A stretch of 64,000 nt of DNA from Planctomycetota bacterium (GTDB lineage: Bacteria; Planctomycetota; MHYJ01; JACQXL01; JACRIJ01): the NCBI GenBank assembly GCA_016220095.1, contig JACRIJ010000104.1:1763-65762 (forward strand), in the 5' to 3' direction. The notes beneath the pieces were generated by a model that saw only the letters and a list, made by a program, of their open reading frames with translations, had not been told where the DNA came from and did not search any database. The position numbers were made by a program, and so were the translations under genes. Below are positions 7,407 through 62,678 of this stretch, in pieces; position 1 is the stretch's first letter, and each line of letters begins with the position of its first letter.

Positions 7407-7421
7407 ACTATACACCTCCAG

Positions 7422-14139: not shown

Positions 14140-14155
14140 TGGCATAAATATTGCA
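14140..14155 (+). promoter_or_regulatory. Sigma-54 (-24/-12) promoter upstream of the cytochrome cluster
   Basis: TGGCAT-AAATA-TTGCA matches TGGCAY-N5-TTGCW. Confidence 0.75.
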
Positions 14156-14471: not shown

Positions 14472-15443
14472 ATGTTTACACAGAAATGGCTTTGGGGAAT
14501 TGGGATGCTCATTCTTGTGCTCGTATTTGCCACGCCTTCATTTGCTATGGTGCATGGCGCCGGCAATCTTGTATGCTACAAATGCCATACAATGCACGAT
14601 AGTATCGGCGGTGCTGATGTAGGTGCGGTAGGTCCGCAGGCGAATTTGTTGAGAGATGCCGGTACGGATCTCTGCCTGTCATGCCACAACGGTTCGTGGA
14701 ATGGCGGGGAACCTAATGTGTACAACGTTGGTGTTGACGAAGAAACGCCGGCTGGCGATTTCTACAGAGTTCGTTCAGCGGGCGGAGATTCCGGTTTGGG
14801 ACACAATCCCGTCGGAACGAACATTGCCGTTGACGGAACTTTGGCAACAGCGCCAGGCGGAACGTTTGCTTCTGCCAACCTGACATGTACGTCCTGTCAC
14901 GATGCCCACGCGACAGACGCCACGAAGTTTTTCGCGTATCGCAATCTGCTAAAGACGGTAAATACCGTGGATGTTAGTACGACAATAGGTTCAGGCAATG
15001 CGCAGGAAGCGGATGTTTATGACGAAGGCACAAACACCAATAACGCCATTTCCAACACGAATAAAAACGTGTACAGGACCGGTGCGGGACAATTTGGCGC
15101 GTGGTGCGGTACGTGTCACGGCTCATTCCACGGTGATGCATCCGATACGGATATTTATACCGGCGGTAAGTGGATCAGGCATCCTACGCATACGAACCTT
15201 ACCGCAGCTATGGTGACAAATTACAATGCGGTCAATACCAATTACATTTATACTTATCCGGTGCTTGACGGCGCAGGAACACTGACCGTTGCCGGCACAA
15301 GGGCAGTTGCCGCAACCGATAAGGTATTCTGCCTTTCATGCCACAACGCGCATACGAGCGCCAATGCAAACGCATTGAAGTGGAATTACGTTGATCAGTC
15401 AATAGCCTCGGATACAGCTTGCAACATGTGCCACGATAAATAA
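14472..15443 (+). CDS. omcS: OmcS-family hexaheme cytochrome c (candidate nanowire subunit)
   Basis: Signal peptide; six CxxCH; motifs colinear with G. sulfurreducens OmcS as recalled (CHTMHxSxGGA, TPxGDF, GHN, TAPGGT, AYRxL, WCxxCHxxxH, RHP, CLSCHxAH, terminal CNxCH). Confidence 0.85.
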   Translation: MFTQKWLWGIGMLILVLVFATPSFAMVHGAGNLVCYKCHTMHDSIGGADVGAVGPQANLLRDAGTDLCLSCHNGSWNGGEPNVYNVGVDEETPAGDFYRVRSAGGDSGLGHNPVGTNIAVDGTLATAPGGTFASANLTCTSCHDAHATDATKFFAYRNLLKTVNTVDVSTTIGSGNAQEADVYDEGTNTNNAISNTNKNVYRTGAGQFGAWCGTCHGSFHGDASDTDIYTGGKWIRHPTHTNLTAAMVTNYNAVNTNYIYTYPVLDGAGTLTVAGTRAVAATDKVFCLSCHNAHTSANANALKWNYVDQSIASDTACNMCHDK

Positions 15444-15574: not shown

Positions 15575-16495
15575 ATGAAAAAACTTATAAAAACAGCAGT
15601 ATTATTAATTATGATGGCGGCCGTCGTATTTGCCGCCGAACGGCCCGGGGTTGTTTTCGTTCTTACAAAAGAAAAAAACAAGTTCAAGCAGTTATCCGCA
15701 ATGATGGTTTTCGCAAAGGACAAGGAAATCTACTTATGCGATTCCGAGGCCCAGAACATAAGGATATTTACGTTTGACGGCGCCGAGCAGACATGGTTTT
15801 CCGTCAAAAGACCCGCAGGTGTAACGAGAGATTCCGGTGGAAACTTTTATGTCCTTGAAACGGACGATAACGGGAGTAATTTTATAGGCATATACGATAA
15901 TAAATTTCAGAAAAAAAATTCCATAAAAATAACCGATTCGCCTTTTCCGCCAACCGAAAAATTCAGCCAGATTGCGATTGATAATGACGATAAGCTTTAC
16001 ATAACCGACGAAGGCAATAAAGTTGTCCTGACGGTGTCGGTGGATGGGAAATACCTGCGGCATTTCGGAAAATTTCCTCAGGAGGAAAACGGCAAGACAC
16101 TTCCGTCGATATCGGACATATGTGTTGACGGGCAAAACAAGAAACTCTATATTGCGGACGCAATTTCCTCTAAAATATACGTTTATAAACTAAACGGCAA
16201 ATATCTTTTTGAATTCGGCAAAGGCGGCGGCATTATGGGCGAACTCAGCCAGCCCTGCAGTGTGGCCGTGGATGCCGACGAAAACGCTTACGTGCTTGAC
16301 AAAATGCGTCACACCGTTATTGTTCACGACAAGGCAGGCAAATTTATTTACGAAATAGGCGGCAAGGGCGAGGCAGAGGGATGGTTTTATTTTCCGAGAT
16401 ATATAGCGATAGACCCCGATAAAAATCTTTATGTACTTGAGAGCATGATTAACAGGTTCCAGGCGCTGACGATTGAAAAGAAAAATGAAAAATGA
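15575..16495 (+). CDS. Periplasmic NHL-repeat beta-propeller protein
   Basis: Signal peptide; GELSQPCSVAVD and GWFYFPRYIAID NHL repeats. Confidence 0.85.
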   Translation: MKKLIKTAVLLIMMAAVVFAAERPGVVFVLTKEKNKFKQLSAMMVFAKDKEIYLCDSEAQNIRIFTFDGAEQTWFSVKRPAGVTRDSGGNFYVLETDDNGSNFIGIYDNKFQKKNSIKITDSPFPPTEKFSQIAIDNDDKLYITDEGNKVVLTVSVDGKYLRHFGKFPQEENGKTLPSISDICVDGQNKKLYIADAISSKIYVYKLNGKYLFEFGKGGGIMGELSQPCSVAVDADENAYVLDKMRHTVIVHDKAGKFIYEIGGKGEAEGWFYFPRYIAIDPDKNLYVLESMINRFQALTIEKKNEK

Positions 16496-17456
16496 CTCGG
16501 GTATAGAAAAAATTATAATGGTTTTGTTGATGCAGGCTTTCTTCCTCGGAAGCATTGTTGCGGATCAGCCGCCGGATGCCGGAAAGCGTCCGGTACAAAT
16601 ACGGTTTTCGTATTCCATAGACGGCTACAGCCGGAACATGCCGTTCAATTCACCCGCCGCATTCTGCCTTGACGAAAAACATAACGAACTGCTGATAGCC
16701 GATACCGGCAATAATGCGATAGGCATTTTTGCCGCGGATACCGGCGAATACAAAGGCCGGCTTGATTCCGCCGTGCCCCTGCAGGCCCCTTGCGGCATAG
16801 CAATAGACGCTGAAGACAGTATTTACGTCGCCTGCAGTGACAGTTCCGTGATAGAGATATTTGATTTTAAAGGCACAAATCTGGGCGGCATAGACGTCTC
16901 AGGCGCCGGGCAGAAAACGCCCGTAAAGCCCGGCAAACTTTACTGGGATGGTTTGGCGGAAGAGCTTTATGTGATTGACCGCGCCAACCAACAGGTGCTT
17001 ATCTGCAAGGACAGGAAAGTCTGGCAGAAAATACAGCCGCTTTCCGCGGATGCCGCCGGCAATGCGGATTGGAAGAATGCCCCCATGTTGCAGGATATTG
17101 CCGTAGATGACTGCGGAAAAATATACGTAATCAGTTCCATCGGCAATGCGGTTGCCGTTTTTGACCGCAATGGAAGTCCTGTAACGTCTTTCGGCAGGCA
17201 CGGCGATACGGCGGATACGGTTTCTTTTCCTGTAGCTGTTTCTATTGATAAAAAAAACCGTTTATGGATAATAGATAACTTCCGCCATTGCATCACTGTA
17301 TTTGACGCCCAGGGGAAATACATAACGGCCTGCGGCGCGTACGGGGCCGATCATGGAAACTTGTTTTTCCCGGTGGATATAATAGTCAAGGATGGCGCGC
17401 TGTACGTTCTTGAAAAAGGCGCGGAACGGGTGCAGGTTTTTGCGATTGTAGAGTAA
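16485..17456 (+). CDS. Periplasmic NHL-repeat beta-propeller protein
   Basis: FNSPAAFCLD, IADTGNN, VSFPVAVSID and LFFPVDI repeats. Confidence 0.85.
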   Translation: MKNDSGIEKIIMVLLMQAFFLGSIVADQPPDAGKRPVQIRFSYSIDGYSRNMPFNSPAAFCLDEKHNELLIADTGNNAIGIFAADTGEYKGRLDSAVPLQAPCGIAIDAEDSIYVACSDSSVIEIFDFKGTNLGGIDVSGAGQKTPVKPGKLYWDGLAEELYVIDRANQQVLICKDRKVWQKIQPLSADAAGNADWKNAPMLQDIAVDDCGKIYVISSIGNAVAVFDRNGSPVTSFGRHGDTADTVSFPVAVSIDKKNRLWIIDNFRHCITVFDAQGKYITACGAYGADHGNLFFPVDIIVKDGALYVLEKGAERVQVFAIVE

Positions 17457-17472: not shown

Positions 17473-20340
17473 ATGAATAAAAGCATTTTTTTAACAATTT
17501 CGGCAGTAGTTTTATTATTGCCCGGTGCGGCATTTGCCGGGGACTATCACCGTGTGTGGGCGACTTCTACCCTGGTTTGTTCCGATTGCCATACCCTGCA
17601 CGCGGGTTCCGTGCCGTATCCGGTACTGCTCAAATACGCTACGGTAAACGAACTCTGCGCGTCCTGCCATGACGGTACGGATACGAAGGCGCCCGATGTA
17701 ATATCACCGGTGACAATGTACACGGGTGATGAACATTCCGGGGCCGGATTTTTTGCAAATACCGGAGGTTCCGCGAGCGATGTCGCGCACGACCTCGGCG
17801 TGTCGGCCGCAATTCCCATGAGTACCAAGCCGGCGATGACCCTGATATGCACTACATGCCACGATCCTCACGGGAACGGTTATTACAGAAATCTTAAGCC
17901 TGATCCGGACGGAGATACAAGCAATATAACCGTTACCATAGGCACAAATATGTTTCAGCAGAATTCACCTCCGATACCGCCGAATGCGGCAACTGTCGCC
18001 GATGCATATAAGGAGTCAAATATCGGATATAAATCCAACATCTCTGCATGGTGCAGTCAATGCCATGATAAACTTGCCTCTAATCAGGCAGGCACTCTCC
18101 CTTCGCATTTCAAAAGGCATCCCGCAGATGTTCCGCTTAATTCTGCCGGATATCATGCGGATACGGCCAACTGGATTACAAATCCGCTTGGAAATCCGAC
18201 AAGCGGCGGCGGCGTTGCAACGGGCGATGCGGTATACGGAATTCCACGGCTTAGATACCAGGTAAGTACCGCGACGGACTATGCGAGCGCTAAAACAGTT
18301 GCCGTTTCCAATCAGGTATTCTGCGGATCGTGCCATACGGCGCACGGTATGAAATACCAGAAAAACCTCGTTTGGCCGTACAGGAAACAGACAGGAATTG
18401 ACAATACCGATGCCTTTGCCGCATGTCAGCAGTGTCATAACCAGTCATATTGGAGTGGTTCTCCGCACGGAAACACCACAACCGGCGTGGCGCGTACTTC
18501 TTCCAATCCCACAGGGGCATGCAACCAGTGCCATGATATGCACGATGATGTTACATCTTACAATTACGCGCTTTATACGACAAATACAAATTCATTGTGC
18601 TTTACAACAGGTTGTCATGTAAATGCCTCTGCCAGCTACCCCGCGCAGGAGGCGGATCGTAATGCCGTGGGATACTTTACGACAAAACGCTGGCCTGGCC
18701 AGACTTCTTATGAAAACGCCACGTACTCTCAACACTATCTGGACGCGGACTGTATTTATCCCGGCAAAAGCTATTCTGCCGGCGATTGTAAGAATTGCCA
18801 CGACCCTCACGGTTCAGCCAATACCTATGATATGACCCTGAATACATATATAGACGGCGGCGTTTATACGAATTATCAGCTATGTTTTGATTGCCATAAC
18901 GAAACTACCGGGCCTGCGGGCATGAACATTGCCGGGAAATATGTAAAAAACCTGTATAGCATCGCGGATAACCAATCTGGGCATCAGATACGTAATTCCG
19001 CAAAATCAGTTTCAAATTTTGCAGGTTCCAAACTTGCCATTGGCGATAAACTGCCCTGCTACGACTGTCACGGGCCCCACGGTTCAAAAGGCAATAACGG
19101 CACCCAGCCGAACAAGAAAATTCTGAGTGATCAGCGCACAGGATGGTCAAATCTTGATACGGCTGTCGCCGCGAATAACCGTACGTTCTGCCTTGGTTGC
19201 CACGTCGCGTCCAACGGGGTAGCCGGTTCAAATACCGTGGAAGGCATAGCCATGAATACCATACCGGTATTTCCGTCAACCGGATTCCAGCCGCACGCAA
19301 CAACGGGCACAGATTCATGCAGTGACTGCCATGGCGATAATTACACGAACAACACGGCGCGAAATGCCCATCATCCGGATAATTCGGATTGTAAATTCTG
19401 TCATAATGCCGCGCAGGGCTCGCACAGGCAGGTAGTGCAGAACGGCGGTACGGGCGGCGATTTTGACGATACTACGCATCATATCGGGGATGTTGTGGGC
19501 ACGGAAAATGTTACGAATGCCGACTGTGTCATGTGCCATAAGCAAAGCAATCATCCATATACAACGGATGCCACGACAATCTACCTGAGAAACGTTGATA
19601 CCGGTGCGGCAATTACTTACGTAAGGGGAGACACCTCTTCGGCAAACCTGACGAATCTTGACAATTTTTGTCTTGCATGTCATGACGCTGCCGGCGCTAA
19701 TGGCGACACTACACCATTTTCGGATAATGCCGTTGCTCTGGATGTAAATGCTCAATTTAACACGGCAAATCCATCCCATCACGCCGTTAAAGGCGCAAGA
19801 TATACGCCGGCCGGCGCATCCGGTATTCTCGCAGCCGCGTTTGTTAACGGCTGGGCCGACAATAGCACCCTTCACTGCAGTGATTGCCATTGCACGGCAA
19901 CTAATGCGCACGGAGACGGCAAGGCTGTTGCAAGCAGGCCGTCTTTGATTAAAGGGTACACGTCGGGAACGGTCTATCCCGGCGGCACTGCCGGCGTTGA
20001 CGGGTACATCTGTTTTTTATGCCATGGTTACCTTACGTATGATACGCCTAATATAACGACACCGAATAATTCCAGGTTTGACCATAACGCGAATGGCGGA
20101 CATGCTACAAAGGATGTTTACAGGGGAATCTATTGTCTTGTATGCCACGGTGGATATGTTAAGGGTTATATACATGGAGAAAACGATACATCGGATATAA
20201 ATATAATGCAACATTTTCTGTCCGGCGCGGCTTTGCGCAGTTGGCAGAGATCCGGGGCAAATGAAAGCTGTAATACGACAGGCAGTATATCGGCATGTTC
20301 CCAGCATAACGGGGGCAAAACGTACGGTTATAATTACTAA
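17473..20340 (+). CDS. Extracellular multiheme cytochrome c (18 CxxCH + 1 CX4CH) with an N-terminal OmcS-like hexaheme domain
   Basis: Signal peptide; first six motifs colinear with 14472-15443; rich in T/N/G/A. Confidence 0.88.
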   Translation: MNKSIFLTISAVVLLLPGAAFAGDYHRVWATSTLVCSDCHTLHAGSVPYPVLLKYATVNELCASCHDGTDTKAPDVISPVTMYTGDEHSGAGFFANTGGSASDVAHDLGVSAAIPMSTKPAMTLICTTCHDPHGNGYYRNLKPDPDGDTSNITVTIGTNMFQQNSPPIPPNAATVADAYKESNIGYKSNISAWCSQCHDKLASNQAGTLPSHFKRHPADVPLNSAGYHADTANWITNPLGNPTSGGGVATGDAVYGIPRLRYQVSTATDYASAKTVAVSNQVFCGSCHTAHGMKYQKNLVWPYRKQTGIDNTDAFAACQQCHNQSYWSGSPHGNTTTGVARTSSNPTGACNQCHDMHDDVTSYNYALYTTNTNSLCFTTGCHVNASASYPAQEADRNAVGYFTTKRWPGQTSYENATYSQHYLDADCIYPGKSYSAGDCKNCHDPHGSANTYDMTLNTYIDGGVYTNYQLCFDCHNETTGPAGMNIAGKYVKNLYSIADNQSGHQIRNSAKSVSNFAGSKLAIGDKLPCYDCHGPHGSKGNNGTQPNKKILSDQRTGWSNLDTAVAANNRTFCLGCHVASNGVAGSNTVEGIAMNTIPVFPSTGFQPHATTGTDSCSDCHGDNYTNNTARNAHHPDNSDCKFCHNAAQGSHRQVVQNGGTGGDFDDTTHHIGDVVGTENVTNADCVMCHKQSNHPYTTDATTIYLRNVDTGAAITYVRGDTSSANLTNLDNFCLACHDAAGANGDTTPFSDNAVALDVNAQFNTANPSHHAVKGARYTPAGASGILAAAFVNGWADNSTLHCSDCHCTATNAHGDGKAVASRPSLIKGYTSGTVYPGGTAGVDGYICFLCHGYLTYDTPNITTPNNSRFDHNANGGHATKDVYRGIYCLVCHGGYVKGYIHGENDTSDINIMQHFLSGAALRSWQRSGANESCNTTGSISACSQHNGGKTYGYNY

Positions 20341-20343
20341 ATA

Positions 20344-21339
20344 ATGTTTTCGAAAATAATAAATAAACTCGCAATAATAATATTAATTGCCATCGCGGTG
20401 TTTCTGACAGTATTTGTGCTTTCTCCGCAGTGTTCCTTTGCGCCGTATTTTACGGGAGAAAAAATACGCCGGTGGTTTTTCATCGTGCTTGTTGCCGCTC
20501 TTTATATCGTTCTTACATTTTGTACGGTAGACCGTATATGGCGGCAGGTCAGGAGCAAATATAACAGCCCTTCCTGGTGGGGATCCATAATTTTTCATGC
20601 GAGTTTTTATGTAATAGTAACAGGCGCATGCATCAGTATAGGCGGAAGAAAAACAGGCCTGGAACTTTTTACGGAGAGCGAAACCGTAATTTTTTCAGAA
20701 AACAATTATCTTTTGCATGACCGGCCGCCTTTCGCAGTAAAATTGAACAGGTTTTTGCCCGTATTTGAAAACGACATGCCGGTTGATTACGCCTGCGATT
20801 TTTCAGTTTATTACGATACGGCAGAAGGATGGATGCAGGCAAGGAAGTCCGGCTTGAAGGTCAACATGCCCCTTGAAGAACAAGGGGTGTCTTTGGTGTT
20901 TAAGCGCTGGGGCTATTCCCCGAGGATTATAATTCGGGACAATGAATACAACGAAATTATCGGCATGTTTAACCTTAATCTCGGCGAAAAAATTGAGAAC
21001 GGGAATCCGCAAAAATTTTTTACCGATTTCACCAGCGTGCCAAATACCAATTTGAAATTGGAATTAAAATTTTATCCGGAAATGGAGAATGGGAAACATG
21101 TGCCCGCGTATACGGCGAGAAACCCCCGCATATACGCGAAATTGTATTCCGGCAAACGGGTTTATGTTGATGGTTATATTGCAATGAAAGAATCGCTTGT
21201 TTCCGATACGCTGACCCTTACATTTGACGATTTTAATTACTGGGTCGGCGTTGAGGTTGTCAACGACATCGGAGAAAACATTGTCTTTGCCGGTTTTGTA
21301 ATTGCCGTAATAGGATTGGCATTTAGAATGCTTTTTTGA
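20344..21339 (+). CDS. ResB/CcsB-like cytochrome c biogenesis protein
   Basis: TM helices with WGSIIFHASF, LKVNMPL, C-terminal DIGENIVFAGF TM; adjacent to ccsA. Confidence 0.75.
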   Translation: MFSKIINKLAIIILIAIAVFLTVFVLSPQCSFAPYFTGEKIRRWFFIVLVAALYIVLTFCTVDRIWRQVRSKYNSPSWWGSIIFHASFYVIVTGACISIGGRKTGLELFTESETVIFSENNYLLHDRPPFAVKLNRFLPVFENDMPVDYACDFSVYYDTAEGWMQARKSGLKVNMPLEEQGVSLVFKRWGYSPRIIIRDNEYNEIIGMFNLNLGEKIENGNPQKFFTDFTSVPNTNLKLELKFYPEMENGKHVPAYTARNPRIYAKLYSGKRVYVDGYIAMKESLVSDTLTLTFDDFNYWVGVEVVNDIGENIVFAGFVIAVIGLAFRMLF

Positions 21340-21385
21340 ACCAAACATTGAACTTAATTGAACCGGATTGAACAACGTTGAACAA
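21336..21385. repeat. TTGAAC tandem array (5 copies)
   Basis: ttgaaccaaacattgaacttaattgaaccggattgaacaacgttgaac. Confidence 0.65.
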
Positions 21386-21394
21386 TTTTAATAT

Positions 21395-22219
21395 ATGACA
21401 AACTTGGAATTAATATTATTAAAAATTACAATAGGTCTTTACCTGGTAAGTAGCCTGTGGCTGGCTGGCGGTTTTATTTTTAACCGTGAAAAATTAAGAA
21501 AATTTTTTGCATTGCCGGTATTAATCGCCCTTGCGGCGCATACGGCGGTGATTATTGTGCGCTGGAGCGCCACGGGCCACGGCCCGGTGATGAAGGACTA
21601 TGAAAACGCCCTGCTTGGCGCCTGGTTGACGGTGGCTTTATATTTACTGTTGGTATTCAAATGGCGCGAAATGGCCGTTATAGGCATAGTTATAGCCCCG
21701 CTCGCCATGCTCCTGCTCGGGTACGCGTTTATGACGGAACCAGTCCTGGAGCGGCTTTCGCCGGGGTATAAATCCTTTTGGCTTTACGTGCACGTATTTA
21801 CCGCATGGCTTGCGTTCGGCGCTTATGCGATCGCGTCCGGATTTGCAGTTGCGTTTTTTATGCGCGGTCATTATGACAAAAAATCCGTACAAACGAAAAT
21901 TCCAGAGTTGTCTGAACTTGATTTGACCGCGTTTCGCATAGTCCTTTTCGGATTTATACTGCACGCAATAATGATAGCCGCGGGTTCCATTTGGGCGGCA
22001 AAATTGTGGGGGAGCTACTGGTCGTGGGACCCGATAGAAACATGGTCGCTGATATCCTGGCTTTGCTACGGGATAATAATCCATTTGCGATTGGCCTTTG
22101 CCTGGAAAAATCAGAGGTTTGCCGTGATGATAATGCTGGCGCTTGTGACGGTTATAATAGCCTGGTTAGGAATAAACTGGATACCGTCAAGCGACCATGT
22201 ATTCAGCAAGTTGGAATGA
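21395..22219 (+). CDS. ccsA: System II cytochrome c synthase CcsA/ResC
   Basis: WWD motif WAAKLWGSYWSWDPIETWS; WLYVHV; C-terminal SDHVF His. Confidence 0.92.
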   Translation: MTNLELILLKITIGLYLVSSLWLAGGFIFNREKLRKFFALPVLIALAAHTAVIIVRWSATGHGPVMKDYENALLGAWLTVALYLLLVFKWREMAVIGIVIAPLAMLLLGYAFMTEPVLERLSPGYKSFWLYVHVFTAWLAFGAYAIASGFAVAFFMRGHYDKKSVQTKIPELSELDLTAFRIVLFGFILHAIMIAAGSIWAAKLWGSYWSWDPIETWSLISWLCYGIIIHLRLAFAWKNQRFAVMIMLALVTVIIAWLGINWIPSSDHVFSKLE

Positions 22220-22260
22220 TTACGGATTCTAAGATTGAAAGATTTTGAGATTGGAAGATT
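22219..22260. repeat. 8-nt xxxAGATT array
   Basis: gattacggattctaagattgaaagattttgagattggaagatt. Confidence 0.7.
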
Positions 22261-22267
22261 ATTGAGA

Positions 22268-23752
22268 ATGCTTAAAAACAAGAAAATACTGCTTATAACG
22301 CCGCCTTATCATTGCGGCGTTGTGGAATCCGCCGGCAGATGGCCGAATCTCGGCCTGCTTTACATCGCGGGTGAACTTCGTAAAACGGGCTTTGAACCGG
22401 TTTATTACGATGCCATGGCAAAATTCCATACAATGGAAGAGGTCGTGCGCACCATTAAAGATACACAGCCAGGCGCGGTCGTAATTACCGCTATTACCGC
22501 CACCATAAATACTGCACTGGAAGTTCTAAAGCACGTAAAAAAAATCGGTCCGGACATTATTACAGTGCTTGGCGGAATTCATCCTACCTTTTGCAGTGAG
22601 CAAATACTTCAGGAAAATACGGATATAGTTGATTTCTGTTGTATAGGCGAAGGCGAACATACATTACAGGAATTACTTCTTACTGTGGATGCCCTGCGAT
22701 GCGATTACGACAAAAACCTGCTTCAGGCAGTCAGGGGAATAGCTTTTATGTATAACGGTCAAGCCGTCAAAACTGCGTCAAGGCCGTTTATAGAAGACCT
22801 TGACACGCTTTCACCGGCCTGGGATATCGTCAACTGGAAAGACTATCCGCTTTACTTCATAGATAATTCCATAGTGGCAATAGTTTCCTCTTCCAGAGGA
22901 TGCACCAATCACTGCGCATTTTGTTCCCAGCATAAATTCTGGAACAGCACGTACAGAGAACGGGATCCCTGGAAATTTGCGGATGAAATGGAACTGCTCG
23001 CGGCGGAATACGGCATAAATGTTTTTTTCATAGCCGACGAATACCCCACCCGTTCCAGGGAACGCTGGGAGAAAATACTGGATATTCTTATTGAAAAAAA
23101 TCTCGGCGTGCACATATTGCTTGAAACTTGCGTAGCGGACATCATTCGCGATGCGGATATCCTGTGGAAATACCGCAAGGCAGGCATAATGTTCGTTTAT
23201 CTCGGCGTAGAATCCACAAAGGATTCCAGGCTTGAGATGTTCAAAAAAGACATAAAATTTGAACAGAGCCGCGATGCCATAAAATTGCTCAAGACCGCCG
23301 GAATGATAACCGAAAGTTCCCTTATTATCGGAATGCCCGACGAAACGCCGGGCACCATAGCGGAAACGCTTGAACTGGCGTTTCTCTATGGCACGGATTA
23401 TATGCATTTTCTGTTTATTACGCCGTGGCCTTACGCGGATATGTACGAACAGCTGAAGACTTTCATAGAGGAAACGGATTTTTCAAAATACAATCTTGTT
23501 GAACCGATAATACGCTCCAATTACATGACCCGGAAGGAACTTATGCAATCGGTGCTTAACTGCTATAAAGAATATTATTCCCGCAGGATACCGGAATGGC
23601 ATGCGATGCGCGGCGATGAATTCAAAAAACAATGTCTTCTGAAAGGAATGAAGGCTATAATGGAGAATTCATTCCTGAAAAAGCACATGCACGAAGTCAA
23701 GAGTTTTAAGTCCGGCGTTCCGGGGCCTGAGTTGCCGGTCTCGGGCCATTGA
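22268..23752 (+). CDS. Cobalamin-binding (class B) radical SAM enzyme, BchE-like fold
   Basis: N-terminal B12 domain (PNLGLLYIAG, LGGIHPTF, GEGE); SSRGCTNHCAFC CxxxCxxC; LGVES. Confidence 0.88.
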   Translation: MLKNKKILLITPPYHCGVVESAGRWPNLGLLYIAGELRKTGFEPVYYDAMAKFHTMEEVVRTIKDTQPGAVVITAITATINTALEVLKHVKKIGPDIITVLGGIHPTFCSEQILQENTDIVDFCCIGEGEHTLQELLLTVDALRCDYDKNLLQAVRGIAFMYNGQAVKTASRPFIEDLDTLSPAWDIVNWKDYPLYFIDNSIVAIVSSSRGCTNHCAFCSQHKFWNSTYRERDPWKFADEMELLAAEYGINVFFIADEYPTRSRERWEKILDILIEKNLGVHILLETCVADIIRDADILWKYRKAGIMFVYLGVESTKDSRLEMFKKDIKFEQSRDAIKLLKTAGMITESSLIIGMPDETPGTIAETLELAFLYGTDYMHFLFITPWPYADMYEQLKTFIEETDFSKYNLVEPIIRSNYMTRKELMQSVLNCYKEYYSRRIPEWHAMRGDEFKKQCLLKGMKAIMENSFLKKHMHEVKSFKSGVPGPELPVSGH

Positions 23753-26237: not shown

Positions 26238-26822
26238 ATGCTGATGATAAGAAATTATTTGCAAGGCGCTATAAAACAGGCAATGATTATACCGTTCCTG
26301 GTCATATTGATTGGTTGCAGCAGTGTTTCAAATTCAGCCTATCTTCATCCTGAATTTGATATGGCCGCAGTACGCAAGGTTGCCGTTGTTACATTTGCAA
26401 ATTATTCCAAAGAACCCATGGCCGGCGAAAAAGTGACCAATATGTTTTTTACCCAGCTTCTCAGCACAGGGCTTTTTGACGTGTCGGAACCGGCAAGGAC
26501 CGAGGAGATCATTAAGAAACACAAAAACGGCTCTGGTATTGATTTGCTTGTCATGCAGAAAATGAAGGAATCATTGAATATCCAGGCAGTTTTTATGGGA
26601 TCTGTGGATGAATATTCTTTTGCCTCCTTCGGCAGTAAAACCTATCCGCTTGTCACAATTTCCGCCCGGCTCGTGGATTGCGAAACAGGCACGATACTTT
26701 GGACGTCTACAATTACAGGTGACGGATCATCGTCCGTTCCGGTGCTGAATATTGGCGCGATAAAAACACTGCCGGAACTTGCACAGGCACTGTGTGTCAG
26801 GATTGTGAGCACTATAAAATAA
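26238..26822 (+). CDS. PelC/CsgG/DUF799-like lipoprotein
   Basis: Lipobox LIGC; VAVVTFANYS, GSVDEY, ISARLVDCETGTILW. Confidence 0.75.
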   Translation: MLMIRNYLQGAIKQAMIIPFLVILIGCSSVSNSAYLHPEFDMAAVRKVAVVTFANYSKEPMAGEKVTNMFFTQLLSTGLFDVSEPARTEEIIKKHKNGSGIDLLVMQKMKESLNIQAVFMGSVDEYSFASFGSKTYPLVTISARLVDCETGTILWTSTITGDGSSSVPVLNIGAIKTLPELAQALCVRIVSTIK

Positions 26823-26832
26823 GGGATAAAAC

Positions 26833-27591
26833 ATGAAAAAAAAATATCTGTTATTTTTGCTTTTTAATGCCGTTCTGTTTGCGCCGGGCGGATGTAGAAC
26901 ATCCAATGTAGTTTCTTCCGCTTCACAGCCTGCGGAAATAGACGCTTTTTACGTCAGAAGGATTGCCGTTGTGCCGTTTGACAACCTTACCGGTCTTCCG
27001 AACGATGCAGGCAGAAAAATTACAAATACACTCGTGGCGGATGTTTATTCCCGGAATGCGTTTGAACTTCTTAACAGCGGTGAATTGGAAGGCTTTCTTA
27101 CGGATGAAAGGATACGCTATTCTTCCGATTTTACCATGCAGAAAACACAGAAACTCCTTTCCAAATACAATGTGCATGCCGTGCTTCTCGGCAGTATCAA
27201 TGAATATTCCTACGCAAGCGCGGGTACGGAACAGCTTCCGGTAATAAGCATTTCCGCAAGGATGCTTGATACGCGTACGGCAAAAATAATATGGGCGTAC
27301 AATGTAACTGCCGAAGCGCGCGAAACGGCATTCGGATTGGGTTCTATAAGAAGCCTCGCTAATTTGACAGAACTTGCGATTAATGATATAGTTGACAGTT
27401 TAATTGCGGCAAAATCCGAAACCGCCTTATCCGGCAGTCAGGGTGCGGATGCCGTGCAAACGGATAGGAGTACGCCTGAAAATCCAAATGTGCAATCGTC
27501 CATAATAATTATAGATGAAAGTGAAAAAAATTATACCAGGGAAAAATCCAAAGAATATTGGTATAAAATAGTCAAAGACTACAAAAAATAG
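26833..27591 (+). CDS. PelC/CsgG/DUF799-like lipoprotein (paralogue)
   Basis: PGGC; IAVVPFDNLT, GSINEY, ISARMLDTRTAKIIW. Confidence 0.75.
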   Translation: MKKKYLLFLLFNAVLFAPGGCRTSNVVSSASQPAEIDAFYVRRIAVVPFDNLTGLPNDAGRKITNTLVADVYSRNAFELLNSGELEGFLTDERIRYSSDFTMQKTQKLLSKYNVHAVLLGSINEYSYASAGTEQLPVISISARMLDTRTAKIIWAYNVTAEARETAFGLGSIRSLANLTELAINDIVDSLIAAKSETALSGSQGADAVQTDRSTPENPNVQSSIIIIDESEKNYTREKSKEYWYKIVKDYKK

Positions 27592-27600
27592 CATTATAGA

Positions 27601-29289
27601 ATGAGAAAAAATACTATGAAAAAAACAATTCCTCTTTTGATAACTGCCATGCTTGCGGTAACAGTAATGGCGTTGCTTTCGTCTCCATCGCCTGCGCAGA
27701 TTGGCAAATCCTGTCTTGACTGTCATAAGGATATCAGCCTTCTTTTAAGCGAAAAAAACGTGCACCCCCCGTTCAATGTGAATTCCTGTGATTCCTGCCA
27801 TGATACTACCACGCATGGTCAGATGGTGGAAAACGGCCCCGCATTGTGTCTGACCTGTCACGATGGGATAAAAAAAGAAACCGGTTCGCACTTTCCGCAT
27901 TCGCCCGCAGAAAGCAACTGCCTGTCCTGCCATAATCCGCACGCATCGGCGAATTCCAAGCTTCTCATCAAACCTCAGGACCTGCTGTGCACTTCCTGTC
28001 ATGACGGCATTACGAAAAAATTAGCCGAAAAACACCTGCATGAGCCGTTTAAATCAAAAGATTGCCTGTCATGCCATAAACCCCACGGCAGTGATACGCC
28101 GCATTTGCTTACGGAAAAAACGCCCGGTTTGTGCACGCAATGCCATGACACATCCGATAAAACCATTGCGTCTGCGCATAAAGATATTTCTATAAAAAAT
28201 TCAAATTGTCCAGTCTGTCATAATCCGCACTCTTCTTCGGAGCCGAAGCTGATAGAAAAAAACCAGCACTATCCTTTTGAAACCGGCAATTGCGCTTCCT
28301 GCCATAAACAGAATGCGGACAGAATAGAACTTATTATGCCTGCGGATAAACTTTGCCGTACGTGTCACGGCAAAATCGGCAACGAACCGGAAAAAACATA
28401 TCATCATTCGCCTGCGGAAAGCGGTGAATGCCTGTCCTGTCACAATCCGCACGCAACGTCCAGGAAAAAACTTCTTAATGATGAAATTAACCCCGTATGT
28501 TTCTCCTGCCATTCTGACAAGCAGGAGCTTCTTGGCAAAGAAATCGTGCATCAGCCGTTTAAAAACGATTGCACGGCCTGCCACAGTCCGCATTCGTCGG
28601 CGCTTGCCGGACTGATAAAAAAGAACGCGGTAGACCTGTGCGGTACATGCCACGCGAATCTGCCGCTGGAATTCGCAAAAAAAACCGTGCATTTTCCGTT
28701 TAAAAACGGTTCCTGCATGTCCTGTCACAATCCCCATGCGTCATCAACGAACGGACTTCTCAAAAAAAACCAAAAGGAATTGTGCCTTGAATGCCATCTT
28801 GATATAAAAGCCAAGCTTGTGGCAAAACGGACGCATTCCGGCACAGGCGGAGATTGCACCGATTGCCATTTGCCACATAGTACGGAAACAGAATCTTTGC
28901 TTAATATTGATAAGGAATTGTCCTGTTTTTCCTGCCATCCGAAAGAGGATTTTACTGACAAAAAATACCAGCATTTTCCCGTTATGAAAAACAAATGCCT
29001 TACATGTCACGATCCGCATGGAACGGATTTCAAGGCAAACCTGAAAAAATCGGTAAATGATACCTGTACCCAATGCCATCCCGCACGGCATAAGGAATTC
29101 GTGCACTCCGTGGACGCATTGCCGTCCGAAAAAATTGATATGTCAGCCGAGGATAAAACCCGGCTTGACGCGGAGGGAAGGCTTTCATGCGTCTCCTGCC
29201 ATAGTCCGCACGGTTCCAGGAACCCGTTTTTCCTTATTGACGAAATGACGCAAGGACAGCTCTGTTACAGGTGCCACAAACAAAACTGA
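27601..29289 (+). CDS. Periplasmic doubled-CXXCH multiheme cytochrome c (22 CxxCH)
   Basis: Signal peptide; repeating HxP..CxxCHxPHxS...LCxxCH units; manual count 22. Confidence 0.92.
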   Translation: MRKNTMKKTIPLLITAMLAVTVMALLSSPSPAQIGKSCLDCHKDISLLLSEKNVHPPFNVNSCDSCHDTTTHGQMVENGPALCLTCHDGIKKETGSHFPHSPAESNCLSCHNPHASANSKLLIKPQDLLCTSCHDGITKKLAEKHLHEPFKSKDCLSCHKPHGSDTPHLLTEKTPGLCTQCHDTSDKTIASAHKDISIKNSNCPVCHNPHSSSEPKLIEKNQHYPFETGNCASCHKQNADRIELIMPADKLCRTCHGKIGNEPEKTYHHSPAESGECLSCHNPHATSRKKLLNDEINPVCFSCHSDKQELLGKEIVHQPFKNDCTACHSPHSSALAGLIKKNAVDLCGTCHANLPLEFAKKTVHFPFKNGSCMSCHNPHASSTNGLLKKNQKELCLECHLDIKAKLVAKRTHSGTGGDCTDCHLPHSTETESLLNIDKELSCFSCHPKEDFTDKKYQHFPVMKNKCLTCHDPHGTDFKANLKKSVNDTCTQCHPARHKEFVHSVDALPSEKIDMSAEDKTRLDAEGRLSCVSCHSPHGSRNPFFLIDEMTQGQLCYRCHKQN

Positions 29290-29294
29290 ATATT

Positions 29295-29744
29295 ATGAAA
29301 AAAAATATTAAAATCATTACATTATTGGCGGCAATTATCATTGCGATTGCCGCGGCTTTTTTTGCATTCGTGTTTGATAAGCCGGTTTCCTATAAGAACG
29401 GGGTTAAATCCGTTTCCATAACTGTAAAACACGAAATGTATAAGAATTTTTCGGAATCTCACACACTTAAGCCTGGAGAGCAGGTTTATATTCATGATAC
29501 GAATTATGTTTTTGTTATTACGGATTTTATGCCTGATTTCAGGATAAAAAGGCAGACTGGTGAAGCGTATTCCAGAACCGATGCGCCCGATAATCCCGCC
29601 GTAAAAATCGCGCTCTATGTTGAAAATGAAAAATTGGATGAAGCCTGGTATATCCTGAAAAAAAAGGATTATTATAAGGTATTTAAACCCGGCATTTATT
29701 TCGTTATAGATAATATCGTTTACGGAGACACCAAGTATGAATAG
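29295..29744 (+). CDS. Membrane-anchored hypothetical protein resembling a ResB periplasmic subdomain
   Basis: N-terminal TM; DFMPDF...SRTDAPDNPAVKI motif. Confidence 0.6.
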   Translation: MKKNIKIITLLAAIIIAIAAAFFAFVFDKPVSYKNGVKSVSITVKHEMYKNFSESHTLKPGEQVYIHDTNYVFVITDFMPDFRIKRQTGEAYSRTDAPDNPAVKIALYVENEKLDEAWYILKKKDYYKVFKPGIYFVIDNIVYGDTKYE

Positions 29745-31692
29745 AAAAAGACTCTTTATTTTTACAGTTCTTACGGCCTTTCTCTGCGCGGCATTTCTGC
29801 AATCGTGCCAGAACGGCACCAGGCCTGCGCCGAAAAAGAAAACATGCATGGAATGCCACGCGCATGAGAATATGCAGGATTTGATGAATAAAAAAGTTGT
29901 CCATGCGCCGTTCAAATCCCAGGATTGCGAATCTTGCCATGAAAGGCATTTATTCGGCGACAAATTGAAATTGAAACATTGGGACAGTAAGCTGTGTGCA
30001 AATAGCGAATGCCACGCCGATTATGCCTCTGATGCCAAGAAAGCGGTTTCCGAGGCGGTACATCCGCCTTACGCTAACTCGCCCTGCTGGCAGTGCCACT
30101 CTCCGCATGCCTCGGATTATCCGAAACTGTTGAAGGCGAAATCGCCCGACATGTGTTACGAGTGTCATGATAGAAGTGCGTATTCCGCGCAAAACGCGCA
30201 TACGCCGGTTAAAGAAGGCAAATGCCTGTCATGTCATGCCGCCCATGAGTCTAATAACAAAGGGCTTCTTCAAAAACCTGTAAACCAGATATGCGCCGAT
30301 TGCCATGATACGGGCACGGACAAAATGAAAACTGCGCATAATAACTTTAATATTTCCAAAAGCGCTTGCTCTTCCTGCCATACGCCGCATTCGTCCGCAC
30401 AAAAAGCCCTGTTAAAAAATACCGTTCACGCGTTTATTTTGGATAAAAACTGCGTTTCATGCCATGCGGATCCTTTGGCGCCGGAAAAACTGGTTAAACC
30501 CGTTAAAGAACTCTGTCTGTCCTGCCATGATAAACAAACAAATGAACTTTCGGATAAACATATACATAAGCCGTTCATTGACGATGATTGCCTGAAATGC
30601 CACGCCGCACATGCTTCGCAGACGGAAAAACTCCTTATTCTGCCCGTAAGCTCACTTTGTATTTCATGCCATAAACAGGAAACTACGCCCGATATGGCAC
30701 AGCATAAGCCGTATATGTCCGGAGATTGTTTGTCATGCCACAAGGCTCATTCAAGCGGCCAGTCGAAACTTGTGAAAGATAATCTTGAGCAAAACTGCGT
30801 CTCATGTCACGCATCCGTGACGGAAGAGCGGAAAAAATCCCATGTGCATAGTCCGTTTGGCGGGGATTCATGCCTTCAATGCCATAGTCCGCACCAGTCA
30901 AAATATAAATTCATATTAAAACAGGAACCTGGCAAATTATGTGCCGAATGCCACGAGGAAACCGTTGCGGGTGGCAGGAAAGAGACTTATCAGCATACGC
31001 CTTTTTATAATCAGAATTGTTTTACCTGTCATTCCGGCCATGCCGCGGATTATAAGGCTTTGCTTGTTAAAAAGGAAAAAGAATTATGCATGGATTGCCA
31101 TAAGAACAGTGCGTCTGAACTTATGGCGTCTTATCAGCATACGCCGGTTAAAAATGGCGAATGCTCGTCCTGTCACAATCCGCATAGTTCCAATATAAAA
31201 AACTATCTGAAAAAATATAAAGAGGCATTATGTTTCGATTGCCATCCGAAAATTACCGAAGAGCTTAAACAGTCCTCCAGGCACCAGCCCGCATTGCAGG
31301 GAGACTGCATAAAATGCCATTCTCCGCATGGTTCCGAAATCGAAAATCAGCTCCGGCGCGCGGATATGGGGTTGTGCACCCAGTGCCATCCCAACGTCGC
31401 AAAAGAGCTCCAAAAGAAATTTCCTCACCAGCCCGTGAAGGACGAAGAATGCCTTGAATGCCATTCTCCGCATGCATCAGCGCATGAAGCCCTTATGTCA
31501 GAGCCGGCCCCGGAACTTTGCCTGAAATGCCATAAACCGGACGCGGTTTTTACCGCCGCGCACAGGAATTTTGACGTGAAAAAGACAGACTGCCTGCAGT
31601 GCCATACGCCACACGCCGCGGACCAGAAAGGCCTGCCGCTGTCCCATCTGCATAAGCCGTATAAGGACGGGGATTGCTCGGAGTGCCACTGA
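29737..31692 (+). CDS. Lipoprotein doubled-CXXCH multiheme cytochrome c (25 CxxCH + 1 CX4CH)
   Basis: Lipobox LQSC; manual count, includes CANSECH. Confidence 0.92.
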   Translation: MNRKRLFIFTVLTAFLCAAFLQSCQNGTRPAPKKKTCMECHAHENMQDLMNKKVVHAPFKSQDCESCHERHLFGDKLKLKHWDSKLCANSECHADYASDAKKAVSEAVHPPYANSPCWQCHSPHASDYPKLLKAKSPDMCYECHDRSAYSAQNAHTPVKEGKCLSCHAAHESNNKGLLQKPVNQICADCHDTGTDKMKTAHNNFNISKSACSSCHTPHSSAQKALLKNTVHAFILDKNCVSCHADPLAPEKLVKPVKELCLSCHDKQTNELSDKHIHKPFIDDDCLKCHAAHASQTEKLLILPVSSLCISCHKQETTPDMAQHKPYMSGDCLSCHKAHSSGQSKLVKDNLEQNCVSCHASVTEERKKSHVHSPFGGDSCLQCHSPHQSKYKFILKQEPGKLCAECHEETVAGGRKETYQHTPFYNQNCFTCHSGHAADYKALLVKKEKELCMDCHKNSASELMASYQHTPVKNGECSSCHNPHSSNIKNYLKKYKEALCFDCHPKITEELKQSSRHQPALQGDCIKCHSPHGSEIENQLRRADMGLCTQCHPNVAKELQKKFPHQPVKDEECLECHSPHASAHEALMSEPAPELCLKCHKPDAVFTAAHRNFDVKKTDCLQCHTPHAADQKGLPLSHLHKPYKDGDCSECH

Positions 31693-31737
31693 ACGAATTT
31701 GAGATTTCAAATTTGAGATTCGTTATAAGGAGTTTAT

Positions 31738-33012
31738 ATGAAAAAAATCGCAATTGTTTCAGTATTGCTCGGTTCAACAGCAATGCTGATAGGCATTTCG
31801 CTCGCGCAGGAGGCGAAGCCTAAAGACAATATCGCTGAAATCTGCTACGGGTGCCATAAGGAACTCAGGGAATCCTTCGCCGGTAAAACTATGCACAAGC
31901 CGGTGGAAAAAGGGAATTGCACTGCCTGCCATAATCCGCACGCGTCCAAAGCCGAACATCTTATGAAGAAAACCGAATCCAAAACATGCCTTGCGCAGGA
32001 ATGTCACGCAGGACAAAAGGAACTTTTTGGCCGCGCCTTTCAGCATACGCCGGTTAAAAACGGTCAATGTTCTCCATGTCACGAACCGCACGCGTCTAAA
32101 GAAAAACACATGCTGAAAAAGGCGTCCATGGAAATATGTGCCGATTGCCACAATATTAAAAAAATGGCTGGAGACAAGACGGTCCTGCACGGACCTTTCA
32201 GGGATGGTCAGTGCCTCGCCTGCCATGACGCGCATTCGGGGAATTATTCCGGAAACATAATAAAAAAGAACGTGGATATCTGCACCGCATGCCACGCGGC
32301 AAACGACAAATTAAAAGAAAAACACGACCAGTTTGATATGTCTGCCGTGGACTGTACGATATGCCATTCACCGCATTATAGCGGTTATCAAAACATGCTC
32401 AAAGCGGTCGTGCACAAGCCGGTTGGCGAGAAGGCATGCGATAAATGCCATGAGAACCTGACAGGCAATAAACCTGACCCGAAAAAACTTGTTAAACCAG
32501 TGCCCGATTTGTGCTTTGAATGCCATGATAAAAAGAGCCATTCCGCTTCCAATGTGCATAAGCCTGACCAGGACGGCAATTGTCTTACATGCCACGAAGT
32601 GCACGCGTCTGATTTCAAACACTTGCTTAACCAGCGTACGCCGGATTTGTGTTTCAAATGCCACAAGGGAATGGAAAGGTTCGTAAAGATGCAGTATCCG
32701 CATAATCCGGTGATGAATGGCGAATGCAATGCCTGTCATTCGGCGCATTCGTCGGAAAACAAGAAACTTCTTGTTGATATGGACTATACAAAAATGTGTA
32801 TGGCTTGCCACAAAAAGCGTGACACGCACCCCGTGGACAAGATCGCGTCAAACACCATAGAAACATTTGAAAATTCACTGGTTAAACTTGATGCCAATCG
32901 TAAAGTGGTCTGCATCTCCTGCCATAATCCGCACGGGAGTGACGAGGAAAACATTCTGCACTACAACAAGGAAAGGGATTTGTGCATACAATGCCATAAG
33001 AAGGAACGTTAA
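31738..33012 (+). CDS. Periplasmic doubled-CXXCH multiheme cytochrome c (15 CxxCH + 1 CX4CH)
   Basis: Signal peptide; manual count, includes CLAQECH. Confidence 0.92.
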   Translation: MKKIAIVSVLLGSTAMLIGISLAQEAKPKDNIAEICYGCHKELRESFAGKTMHKPVEKGNCTACHNPHASKAEHLMKKTESKTCLAQECHAGQKELFGRAFQHTPVKNGQCSPCHEPHASKEKHMLKKASMEICADCHNIKKMAGDKTVLHGPFRDGQCLACHDAHSGNYSGNIIKKNVDICTACHAANDKLKEKHDQFDMSAVDCTICHSPHYSGYQNMLKAVVHKPVGEKACDKCHENLTGNKPDPKKLVKPVPDLCFECHDKKSHSASNVHKPDQDGNCLTCHEVHASDFKHLLNQRTPDLCFKCHKGMERFVKMQYPHNPVMNGECNACHSAHSSENKKLLVDMDYTKMCMACHKKRDTHPVDKIASNTIETFENSLVKLDANRKVVCISCHNPHGSDEENILHYNKERDLCIQCHKKER

Positions 33013-59593: not shown

Positions 59594-61618
<2,025 letters not shown>

Positions 61619-61670
61619 ATTTAAAATTTCAGATTCAAGAATTAAGGTTTTTGTTGAAAGTCTGGTACTT

Positions 61671-62678
61671 ATGCGCAAAAAAAACATAATTTATTTTTTC
61701 CTGAGCTTATTAATGTTTTCCGGCCTGCGGGCCGATGAACCGGTTGAGCCGAAATCCGCGTTGAACGATTCCCAGCCGCACGTCTTGAGCGAGATACTCC
61801 AGGCCATAACGGATCCTGTCATGTGCATCGCAAGAACCGATGCGGACAATGACGGCTCGGATGACATTGTCTTGGTAACATTGAATAACAAAATACTAGC
61901 ATTGCTTGCGCAGGAATCCCTTGATTTCGACGGCAATAAAACAATTTCCTTTATCGTAAAGCCGGTGACTCCGCCAGTTATTCCGAAGCCGCCGGAGAAA
62001 ACTGATCCGGAATTAACCCCGCCGAATAGAGAGCCCATGCTGGTCACGGCTGTTATTGCGGACATTAACAACGATGAATATGACGATATAATTCTCGCGT
62101 ACGCCGGCACGGAGTCATCTCCCGTAAGAATTCTCTGCGGAAACAGCAACGGCGAATATTCCGACGAATCCGAAGGCATTTTGCCGCACCTTGACATTGC
62201 CGCGCCGGCATTATTGAAAACTGCGGATGTAGATTCAGACGGCAATATGGATATCATTATTACTTCTTTTGGAAGGGCCAAGGTTGACCGGTTCGGGGTG
62301 CGCGCGACAAGCCAGAAAAAGATTTACGTGCTTATTAATGACGGCACTGTTTTCGCGGATAAGACAGCGGAACTTTTCGGCGAAGATTTCTGCAATAAAA
62401 TGGTTATTGATATTCAGGCCGGCGATTTTAACTCGGATAATATAAATGATGTTGTGATTTTAAGCCCTGAGGAAAGCATGCTGTATACGTCAAAAGAAGG
62501 GGAATTTACGGGATGTAAACTTGAGACAACGGTTAAGCCACATCCGAGGGTGAATCAGGAGATGTCCATGGACATTAACAATGACGGCAAAGAAGAACCT
62601 ATAAAAATCCAGGGTGGAAAGGCGGTTGTAATAACCGAAGAAAATGCCGATACTCCGGAACCCGGCTACGGGGACTAA
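61671..62678 (+). CDS. Secreted FG-GAP repeat protein, paralogue of the N-terminus of 7673-12013
   Basis: ADINNDEYDD, ADVDSDGNMD, GDFNSD; shared GxAKxDxxG..Q.K.YVL.N...F.D.T.ELFG.DF. Confidence 0.8.
   Translation: MRKKNIIYFFLSLLMFSGLRADEPVEPKSALNDSQPHVLSEILQAITDPVMCIARTDADNDGSDDIVLVTLNNKILALLAQESLDFDGNKTISFIVKPVTPPVIPKPPEKTDPELTPPNREPMLVTAVIADINNDEYDDIILAYAGTESSPVRILCGNSNGEYSDESEGILPHLDIAAPALLKTADVDSDGNMDIIITSFGRAKVDRFGVRATSQKKIYVLINDGTVFADKTAELFGEDFCNKMVIDIQAGDFNSDNINDVVILSPEESMLYTSKEGEFTGCKLETTVKPHPRVNQEMSMDINNDGKEEPIKIQGGKAVVITEENADTPEPGYGD

Follow-up and report, generated by a model that had tools for sequence, protein, structure and literature searches.

The window analysed here is a stretch of 64,000 nucleotides from a Planctomycetota bacterium (assembly GCA_016220095.1, contig JACRIJ010000104.1, positions 1,763 to 65,762 of the forward strand), and the element under study is the gene P0001, which encodes a secreted c-type cytochrome with 18 CxxCH motifs and one CxxxxCH motif (CFTTGCH, residue 376). 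Six of these 19 haem sites lie within residues 36–322 and 13 lie beyond, as in the initial annotation, which had read the protein as an OmcS domain followed by 13 additional haems and had proposed that it joins a cytochrome filament at one end only, serving as cap, nucleator or terminal reductase. All of the motifs quoted there for the OmcS part are present (CSDCHTLH at 36–43, CTTCHDPHG at 126–134, YYRNL, AWCSQCH at 192–198, KRHP at 214–217 and VFCGSCHTAH at 282–291), and residues 12–324 align end to end with the neighbouring 323-residue hexahaem at 28% identity (BLASTP, E 6e-19) with the six motifs in register. The C-terminal face of the domain is extended as described, the chain running straight into a further haem module. 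Alignments with relatives divide the mature protein into three modules, M1, M2 and M3 (Table 1), and mark P0001 as an in-frame fusion of three units that are encoded separately in other bacteria. The cleavage site of the signal peptide was placed by the A-x-A motif and by alignment to mature OmcS, which starts with FHSGG.

Table 1. Features of P0001 and of the gene string around it (positions in the window; residues numbered in P0001).
Feature	Position	Strand	Residues and details	Basis
P0001 gene, secreted c-type cytochrome	17473..20340	+	955 amino acids, 19 haem sites	Open reading frame (ORF) list, translation, motif count
Sec-type signal peptide	17473..17538	+	1–22 (...PGAAFA/GDYH)	Read from sequence
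Module M1, OmcS-fold hexahaem	17539..18450	+	23–326	BLASTP, profile, AlphaFold2 (AF2), VIA-align
M1 haem motifs	within 17539..18450	+	36, 62, 126, 194, 284, 318	
Codon of His43 (equivalent of OmcS His16)	17599–17601	+	43	
Fusion junction	18439..18543	+	27 residues from His322 (haem 6) to Cys350 (haem 7), then CNQCHDMH (His357)	
Module M2, seven-haem partner cytochrome	18451..19380	+	327–636	Identity, hidden Markov model (HMM), hhalign
M2 haem sites			CxxCH at 350, 439, 471, 529, 573, 616; CxxxxCH at 376	
Module M3, C-terminal	19381..20337	+	637–955, 6 CxxCH	Alignment to P0003, P0004, P0005
Stand-alone OmcS-like hexahaem	14472..15443	+	323 amino acids	phmmer to 6ef8, E 3.6e-14
Two NHL-repeat beta-propeller genes	15575–16495, 16473–17456	+	Between hexahaem and P0001	Pfam NHL
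ResB-like and CcsB genes, system II cytochrome c maturation	20344..22219	+	Directly downstream of P0001	Pfam ResB, Cytochrom_C_asm
B12-binding radical SAM gene	22235–23752	+	Directly after the ResB/CcsB pair	
NHL-repeat gene	23749–26232	+	827 amino acids	
Two CsgG/LpoB-like lipoprotein genes	26238..27591	+		Pfam CsgG, LpoB, GNA1162-like
Three 'peptide-minimised' multihaem cytochrome genes	27601..33012	+		
First of these, multihaem gene	27601–29289	+	22 CxxCH	
Multihaem gene pair	29737–31692, 31738–33012	+	40 CxxCH together	

The reading frame is open across 2865 nucleotides with every haem motif intact. A second sample of the study yielded a contig of 419 nucleotides that spans positions 18291–18709, and because this contig bridges the junction between M1 and the rest of the protein without any difference, this junction is not an assembly slip. 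The whole gene is also covered, again without differences, by a contig of 13.6 kb from the probable source run, while two other runs (X3 and X4) gave short pieces only, at about 87–92% identity, none of them bridging the junction, and no RNA dataset is found among the listed sequencing runs that contain the stretch. That the long frame is an artefact of assembly or sequencing error, or a decaying gene, is a notion that could draw on the state of the source, which is a metagenome-assembled genome (MAG) in 132 contigs, and on the near-identical copies of the stretch, which are confined to groundwater metagenome runs of one study. It is extremely improbable and already contradicted by the intact frame and motifs, by the identical bridging of the junction in the second sample, and by seven other fused proteins from unrelated sources with the same junction layout.

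Both its profile and the fold of its predicted model place M1 in the OmcS family. A profile of 87 family sequences with M1 as the first row matched OmcS in the PDB (6EF8) over chain residues 1–354 with an E value of 9.6e-32 and 113.6 bits, the next match standing at 2.7e-10; as a single sequence, P0001 gave no phmmer match in the PDB at E ≤ 1, OmcS included. The AF2 model of residues 23–330, built on the family alignment, reached a predicted local distance difference test score (pLDDT) of 84 and a predicted template modelling score (pTM) of 0.85. In a Foldseek search of this model 6ef8_A was the sole match at E ≤ 0.001 (E 1.4e-7), and VIA-align superposed the model on OmcS with a Z score of 14.8 and a root-mean-square deviation (rmsd) of 3.5 Å over 256 residues at 22% identity, the next row having a score of 5.8. 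The OmcS fold that the initial annotation had expected of the N-terminal domain is thus borne out by the model.

The available text of the structural study of OmcS from Geobacter sulfurreducens states that the haems stack in motif order and that 11 of the 12 axial histidines come from the subunit itself, the ligand of haem 5 being supplied by the neighbour (Filman 2019, PMC6584659). OmcS (GSU2504; PDB 6EF8/6NEF) has its six CxxCH motifs in the same order as M1, the same fold and the conserved CH..H, and the count of conserved histidines in M1 would fit a haem 5 that, as in OmcS, has no internal ligand. His43 of P0001 is the equivalent of OmcS His16, which Wang et al. in 2019 are said to have identified as the trans ligand donated to haem 5 of the neighbouring subunit; the claim that this residue is kept proved correct for P0001, and it holds for all eight fused forms described below and for 98 of 108 family domains. 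M1 is shorter than OmcS (about 304 residues against 407), and P0001 as a whole, with 955 residues, lies far outside the size of about 290–430 residues of single-domain OmcS-family proteins. Standing alone is the common state of the domain: 113 of 128 proteins with a near-full-length match to the M1 HMM, pooled from the homology searches and 12 ORFs of the loci, have no tail of at least 250 residues. P0001 differs from OmcS in the 13 further haem sites that follow M1 covalently, and because of them it would not act as a repeating subunit at the haem-5/6 face.

M1 has the signatures that flank the OmcS motifs (CH..H following the first haem, CHDPHG at the third, WCxxCH at the fourth, RHP, and CHxAH at the fifth). 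Across the 108 family domains the six motifs are in register, and six non-motif histidines are conserved for the six haems: H26 in 107 domains, H43 in 98, H106 in 106, H133 in 108, H216 in 106 and H291 in 108. The histidine four residues after the haem-4 motif is not among them. The initial annotation had correctly noted its absence from P0001 (CHDKLA) and had taken this as a sign of one-ended docking, an argument which has to be rejected, as the position is variable: 40 of the 108 domains have the histidine and 68 lack it, the closest stand-alone hexahaems (P0009–P0012, 44–51% identical) lack it as well, and three of the eight fused forms have it.

M2 is a seven-haem cytochrome in its own right. 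It starts with SPH...CNQCHDMH, is 43–51% identical to stand-alone proteins of about 380 residues (40–48% to a set of 51 stand-alone members) and scores 354 bits against the HMM of the family, and it conforms to the family signature of about 310 residues with six CxxCH and one Cx(2-6)CH motif, an SPH...CxxCH..H/K start and GDKLPCYDCHNPHGS. Among the 101 shorter proteins that matched M2, 51 cover at least 96% of the module and are 342–476 residues long. The stand-alone proteins, found in Krumholzibacteriota and Zixibacteriota MAGs (P0163 and P0178 are examples), are 43–48% identical to residues 327–636 and share with M2 of P0001 the seven haem sites and eight conserved histidine positions; they differ in being separate genes downstream of a hexahaem, with a signal peptide of their own, whereas in P0001 the module is fused in frame. 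Their name in the databases is merely 'cytochrome c3 family protein'. Three longer proteins outside the window (P0006, P0007 and P0008, 1036–1573 residues) have repeated M2-like units, and one of them also carries Big_5 and SLH domains, which suggests a cell-wall-anchored version in monoderm bacteria.

The separate M2 gene is constantly found beside an OmcS-like hexahaem. In two Candidatus Krumholzibacteriia MAGs, each with one hexahaem, a 379-residue M2 protein with its own signal peptide directly follows a 338-residue OmcS-like hexahaem. In the phylum Krumholzibacteriota, to which one of these split loci (L002) belongs, M2 occurs in 19 of 208 genomes at E ≤ 1e-20, always as an open frame of 379–446 residues, and in 19 of 19 it is immediately preceded on the contig by a hexahaem match in the same orientation. 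The adjacency recurs in all five loci where M2 is strong and the sequence before it is available (L001, L002, L009, L010 and L011). It is looser in one genome of the window's own class (G026), where a hexahaem 57% identical to M1 is followed by a related cytochrome gene. The 79 metagenome loci collected consist mostly of distant multihaem genes, strong M2 being confined to L008–L011, and a scan of contigs with the whole of P0001 gave two loci only. GyrA is 62–69% identical to proteins from Planctomycetota MAGs, Ca. Scalindua among them. M2 was not found in the 400 other Planctomycetota genomes searched at the same threshold, and because of this the cytochrome cluster is considered rare in the phylum and perhaps acquired; a search of relatives with the whole of P0001 matched 3 of 41, G000 included.

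In the split loci (L001, L002, L006, L009 and L010) the frame that is continuous at the P0001 junction is broken by a stop codon and an intergenic gap, and a signal peptide follows. When M1 was searched against 1.84 billion representatives, 535 matches came out at E ≤ 0.001, and among the 150 of these that were listed, seven (P0001, P0015, P0021, P0040, P0078, P0096 and P0136) carry M1 as the N-terminal part of a far longer chain of 697–2555 residues. An eighth fused form, P0002, consists of M1 and M2 in 666 residues. In all eight, 26–30 residues separate the haem-6 histidine from the first cysteine of the next module, and every following module starts with [ST][PK]H-x(17-22)-CxxCH..H. The hexahaem C-terminal tail of split pairs (2–9 residues) and the N-terminus of mature M2 add up to a length similar to that of the linker. 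In a FastTree tree of M1 domains (121 rows, with six internal matches and P0008 left out) the eight fused domains are scattered among stand-alone hexahaems, which requires at least four changes, at least three of them forced by well-supported branches; M1 of P0001 itself groups with the hexahaem of the G026 split pair and with stand-alone P0009–P0013. The survey of OmcS-domain fusions, in short, indicates that M1 became joined to an M2-type module at least three times and with constant spacing.

M3 aligns to the C-terminal halves of Zixibacteria MAG proteins with an M2+M3 layout (P0003, P0004 and P0005); in P0003 and P0004, from Zixibacteriota MAGs and 709–724 residues long, M3 follows M2 and M1 is missing. 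An ESM Atlas search with M3 gave only generic multihaem clusters with scores of about 0.90. Assignment of P0001 to known conduit families was considered and rejected: it scores 35 bits against a cut-off of 209.3 for the OmcA/MtrC decahaem family (TIGR03507) and 60.8 bits against 192.2 for the DmsE/MtrA type (TIGR03508). MtrC/OmcA and DmsE/MtrA are multihaem extracellular and periplasmic conduits, and their weak NCBIfam and Pfam matches to P0001 come through paired CxxCH motifs; the structural match of the decahaem MtrC/OmcA and DmsE/MtrA proteins has a Z score of 5.8 for M1 and 4.5 for M2.

Comparison of the first two modules with each other suggests how they may fit together. By hhalign, M1 residues 31–148 align on M2 residues 345–461 over 106 columns with a probability of 98.7% and an E value of 1.7e-16, and the aligned part includes three haem sites, namely haem 1 with its CH..H, haem 2 and haem 3 with CHDPHG, together with the GH ligand. 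By this alignment M2 opens with a diverged version of the N-terminal half of the OmcS-like domain. Among 52 stand-alone M2 proteins, H6, H95, H120, H178, H210, H282 and H307 are invariant or present in 51; the CH..H position, the third residue after the histidine of the first motif (His357 in P0001), is histidine in 41, lysine in 10 and arginine in one, and the alternation of histidine and lysine is what a metal ligand might show. M2 has eight conserved candidate ligands for seven haem sites and M1 has six for six, so that M1 and M2 together have one spare donor. The spare donor fits the possibility that His43 is free for another molecule.

These observations lead to a reading of P0001 as a terminal piece that docks through one face only, sits at the haem-5/6 end of a wire of the OmcS type and adds 13 haems to it, a proposal which we put forward tentatively and at somewhat less than an even chance. 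M2 would sit on the haem-5/6 face of M1 like the next subunit in an OmcS filament, haem 7 would continue the stack after haem 6, and the spare M2 ligand, either His357 or the invariant His332, would close haem 5 of M1. The haem-5/6 face of M1 would in this way be permanently occupied in cis. The N-terminal face of M1, with haem 1 and His43, would remain free and could dock on the exposed haem-5/6 end of the free hexahaem whose gene lies upstream of P0001, whether this exists as a filament or as a single molecule. P0001 would fix the polarity of the wire, and its 13 extra haems would lead to a mineral or partner cell if it is a tip, or to an envelope conduit if it is a base. The one-ended docking of the initial annotation gains from the survey of relatives, being in keeping with an M2 that is a conserved separate partner gene elsewhere and whose N-terminal half appears homologous to the OmcS-like half. 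A broader proposal, that OmcS-type wires in general have a dedicated, encoded end-piece, M2, which mimics the N-terminal face of a subunit and caps the haem-5/6 end, and which in P0001 is covalently joined to the final subunit and lengthened by another module, is doubtful and is offered as the bolder of the two.

The genomic surroundings of P0001 are in keeping with the terminal-piece proposal. Every gene between 14472 and 33012 is on the plus strand and closely spaced, 34 of the 41 Paired_CXXCH matches of the genome lie on this contig, and a search of the genome for OmcS-like genes gave two matches only, P0001 and the free hexahaem, which belongs to this string and precedes P0001 by 2 kb. The Krumholzibacteriia cluster shows synteny with the string apart from one gene. 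The two NHL genes between hexahaem and P0001 are homologous to the NHL gene upstream of the L002 hexahaem, the two lipoproteins match those of L002 (tblastn, E 1.7e-27 and 6.6e-16), and the multihaem pair at the end is collinear with a single 42-haem gene of L002 (6628–9801). Between the two members of this pair lie three stop codons and a ribosome-binding site, and the second has a new signal peptide; the comparison indicates a second fusion or fission event within the same cluster. CcsB scores 163.6 bits in NCBIfam, under the cut-off of 187.6. The B12 radical SAM protein resembles BchE with 408 bits, short of the 481 required for the equivalog, and might serve the cytochromes by modifying a cofactor or a protein.

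Some further observations concern the DNA outside this string. In the 441-nucleotide gap upstream of the hexahaem, TGGCATAAATATTGCA at 14140–14155 on the plus strand has one mismatch to the sigma-54 -24/-12 consensus, and a HAMP histidine kinase (2062–3537) and a sigma-54 activator (3534–4913) are encoded farther upstream. The window has fewer matches to this pattern than chance would give (43, with 61 expected), so that the putative site before the operon is no more than a lead. The minus strand at 5166–7415 encodes a 749-residue protein with a lipoprotein-like N-terminus and many Gly/Asp-rich repeats of the 'GGNDxY' type, without a Pfam match at E ≤ 1e-4. FG-GAP repeat proteins flank the region, one of 1446 residues just upstream of the cytochrome operon (7673–12013) and one of 359 residues at 61599–62678.

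The gene string also resembles, as far as published descriptions of the latter permit a comparison, the osc (omcS companion) cluster of G. sulfurreducens. There, in the available text of two reports, the block GSU2500–2493 follows the OmcS-like hexahaem GSU2501 (OscC) and includes the 26-haem cytochrome GSU2495, and roles in folding (OscH) and in secretion (OscE/F/G) have been proposed (PMC13194489, PMC12977616). The likeness is one of composition: beside its OmcS-like hexahaem the window has NHL propellers, CsgG/LpoB-like lipoproteins and cytochromes with 22 and 40 haem sites; it adds the ResB/CcsB pair and the B12 radical SAM gene, and the osc descriptions, in the parts available, give no cytochrome at GSU2500, directly after GSU2501.

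The same context could be read from the other side. P0001 might be a base or anchor adaptor, in which M3 and M2 would take electrons from an envelope conduit made of the downstream 22-, 24- and 16-haem cytochromes and the lipoproteins, M1 would start the filament, and hexahaems would add outward. This follows the same one-ended logic as the terminal piece, it agrees with the position of P0001 next to haem-maturation genes, lipoproteins and giant multihaem cytochromes, and it addresses a point, the membrane anchoring of the OmcS wire, that is described as still speculative in the available portion of a recent article (PMC12307469). Nothing in the sequence separates tip from base, and inspection of both ends of the mature protein shows no membrane anchor, lipobox or known sorting signal. 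In split clusters M2 is followed by a conserved ORF of about 539 residues that ends in ...YRQDF (L002 3293–4912; L009 5833–7449; Porin_4 E 0.053) and is probably an outer-membrane barrel; no homologue of the L002 member is found in the window, and this is the one gene by which the synteny fails. An anchoring role specifically is regarded as unlikely.

Against a terminal piece of either kind stands another reading, in which P0001 is a self-contained, non-polymeric wire of 19 haems that never joins a filament, and the hexahaem–M2 pair of other bacteria is a 1:1 heterodimer. The OmcS-like domain would then be a building block of long extracellular or periplasm-spanning cytochromes, as in large proteins of the MtrC/OmcA or PCC3 type. 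The gene dosage is compatible with it: 15 of the 19 M2-bearing Krumholzibacteriota genomes have a single hexahaem match, a 1:1 ratio of hexahaem to M2 that fits a heterodimer as well as a capped polymer. So are the largest fused forms (P0078, P0096 and P0136), which reach 2555 residues with many more haems and with non-haem domains and look like modular monomeric cytochromes. In the available text of one study OmcS of G. sulfurreducens is the only member among its homologues known to form a wire (PMC12977616), and large monomeric multihaem cytochromes have been proposed, in the accessible part of another, as alternatives to wires of small subunits (PMC9900912). What a monomer does not account for is the His16-equivalent donor, kept in all fused forms and nearly all family domains, for which the ligand count leaves no haem; nor does it account for the second, free hexahaem in the same gene string, or for companion genes that resemble those tied to OmcS secretion and assembly. 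A monomeric wire is a serious possibility, although clearly short of even.

Several other points weigh against the terminal piece. M1 shares only 28% identity with the free hexahaem and falls in a different clade of the tree, so that heterotypic docking between them is not a given. The homology of M1 and M2 is drawn from one profile–profile comparison within a motif-rich, compositionally biased class of proteins, the CH..H position of M2, which would be one of the two possible donors to haem 5, is not invariant, and the M2 profile gave no match in the PDB at E ≤ 0.01. The AF2 model of M2+M3 is poor (mean pLDDT 49.5, with M3 below 50), and a fold search with this unusable model gave no match with Z of at least 5, the best being MtrA at 4.5 and OmcS at 2.9. 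A literature search found no description of OmcS-domain fusions or of the partner cytochrome, with the limit that Shen et al. 2025, Wang et al. 2019 and their supplements, which it did not cover, may contain them.

Functionally, the terminal-piece proposal has a counterpart in another class of fibres. Tip and terminator subunits of chaperone–usher pili use one of two polymerisation faces and thereby occupy the end of the fibre. The likeness is one of function only, as there is no relation of sequence or fold to P0001, and the interfaces would differ: a haem stack with a trans histidine ligand in P0001, donor-strand exchange in the pili. The same analogy accompanies the question of wire termination, posed as open, in the available text of a recent report (PMC13712944), and how nanowires start, end, are anchored and connect to their donors and acceptors is likewise treated as open in the accessible parts of the literature (PMC12307469, PMC13712944).

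If OmcS-type wires do have such an encoded end-piece, cytochrome nanowires would gain from it a defined polarity, a signal for the start or stop of assembly, and a specialised terminal head for electron exchange. To our knowledge, no cytochrome filament is known to have any of these. A conserved partner cytochrome that is recurrently fused with the same spacing is a concrete, testable candidate for a filament end-piece or adaptor, and the signature of a hexahaem followed by an SPH...CxxCH..H/K module can be used to search for systems of this kind among the uncultured bacteria of groundwater and sediment. If P0001 is instead a monomeric wire, the OmcS fold would be reused as a module in giant monomeric cytochromes, and such reuse would matter wherever 'OmcS' hits in metagenomes are taken as evidence for nanowires.

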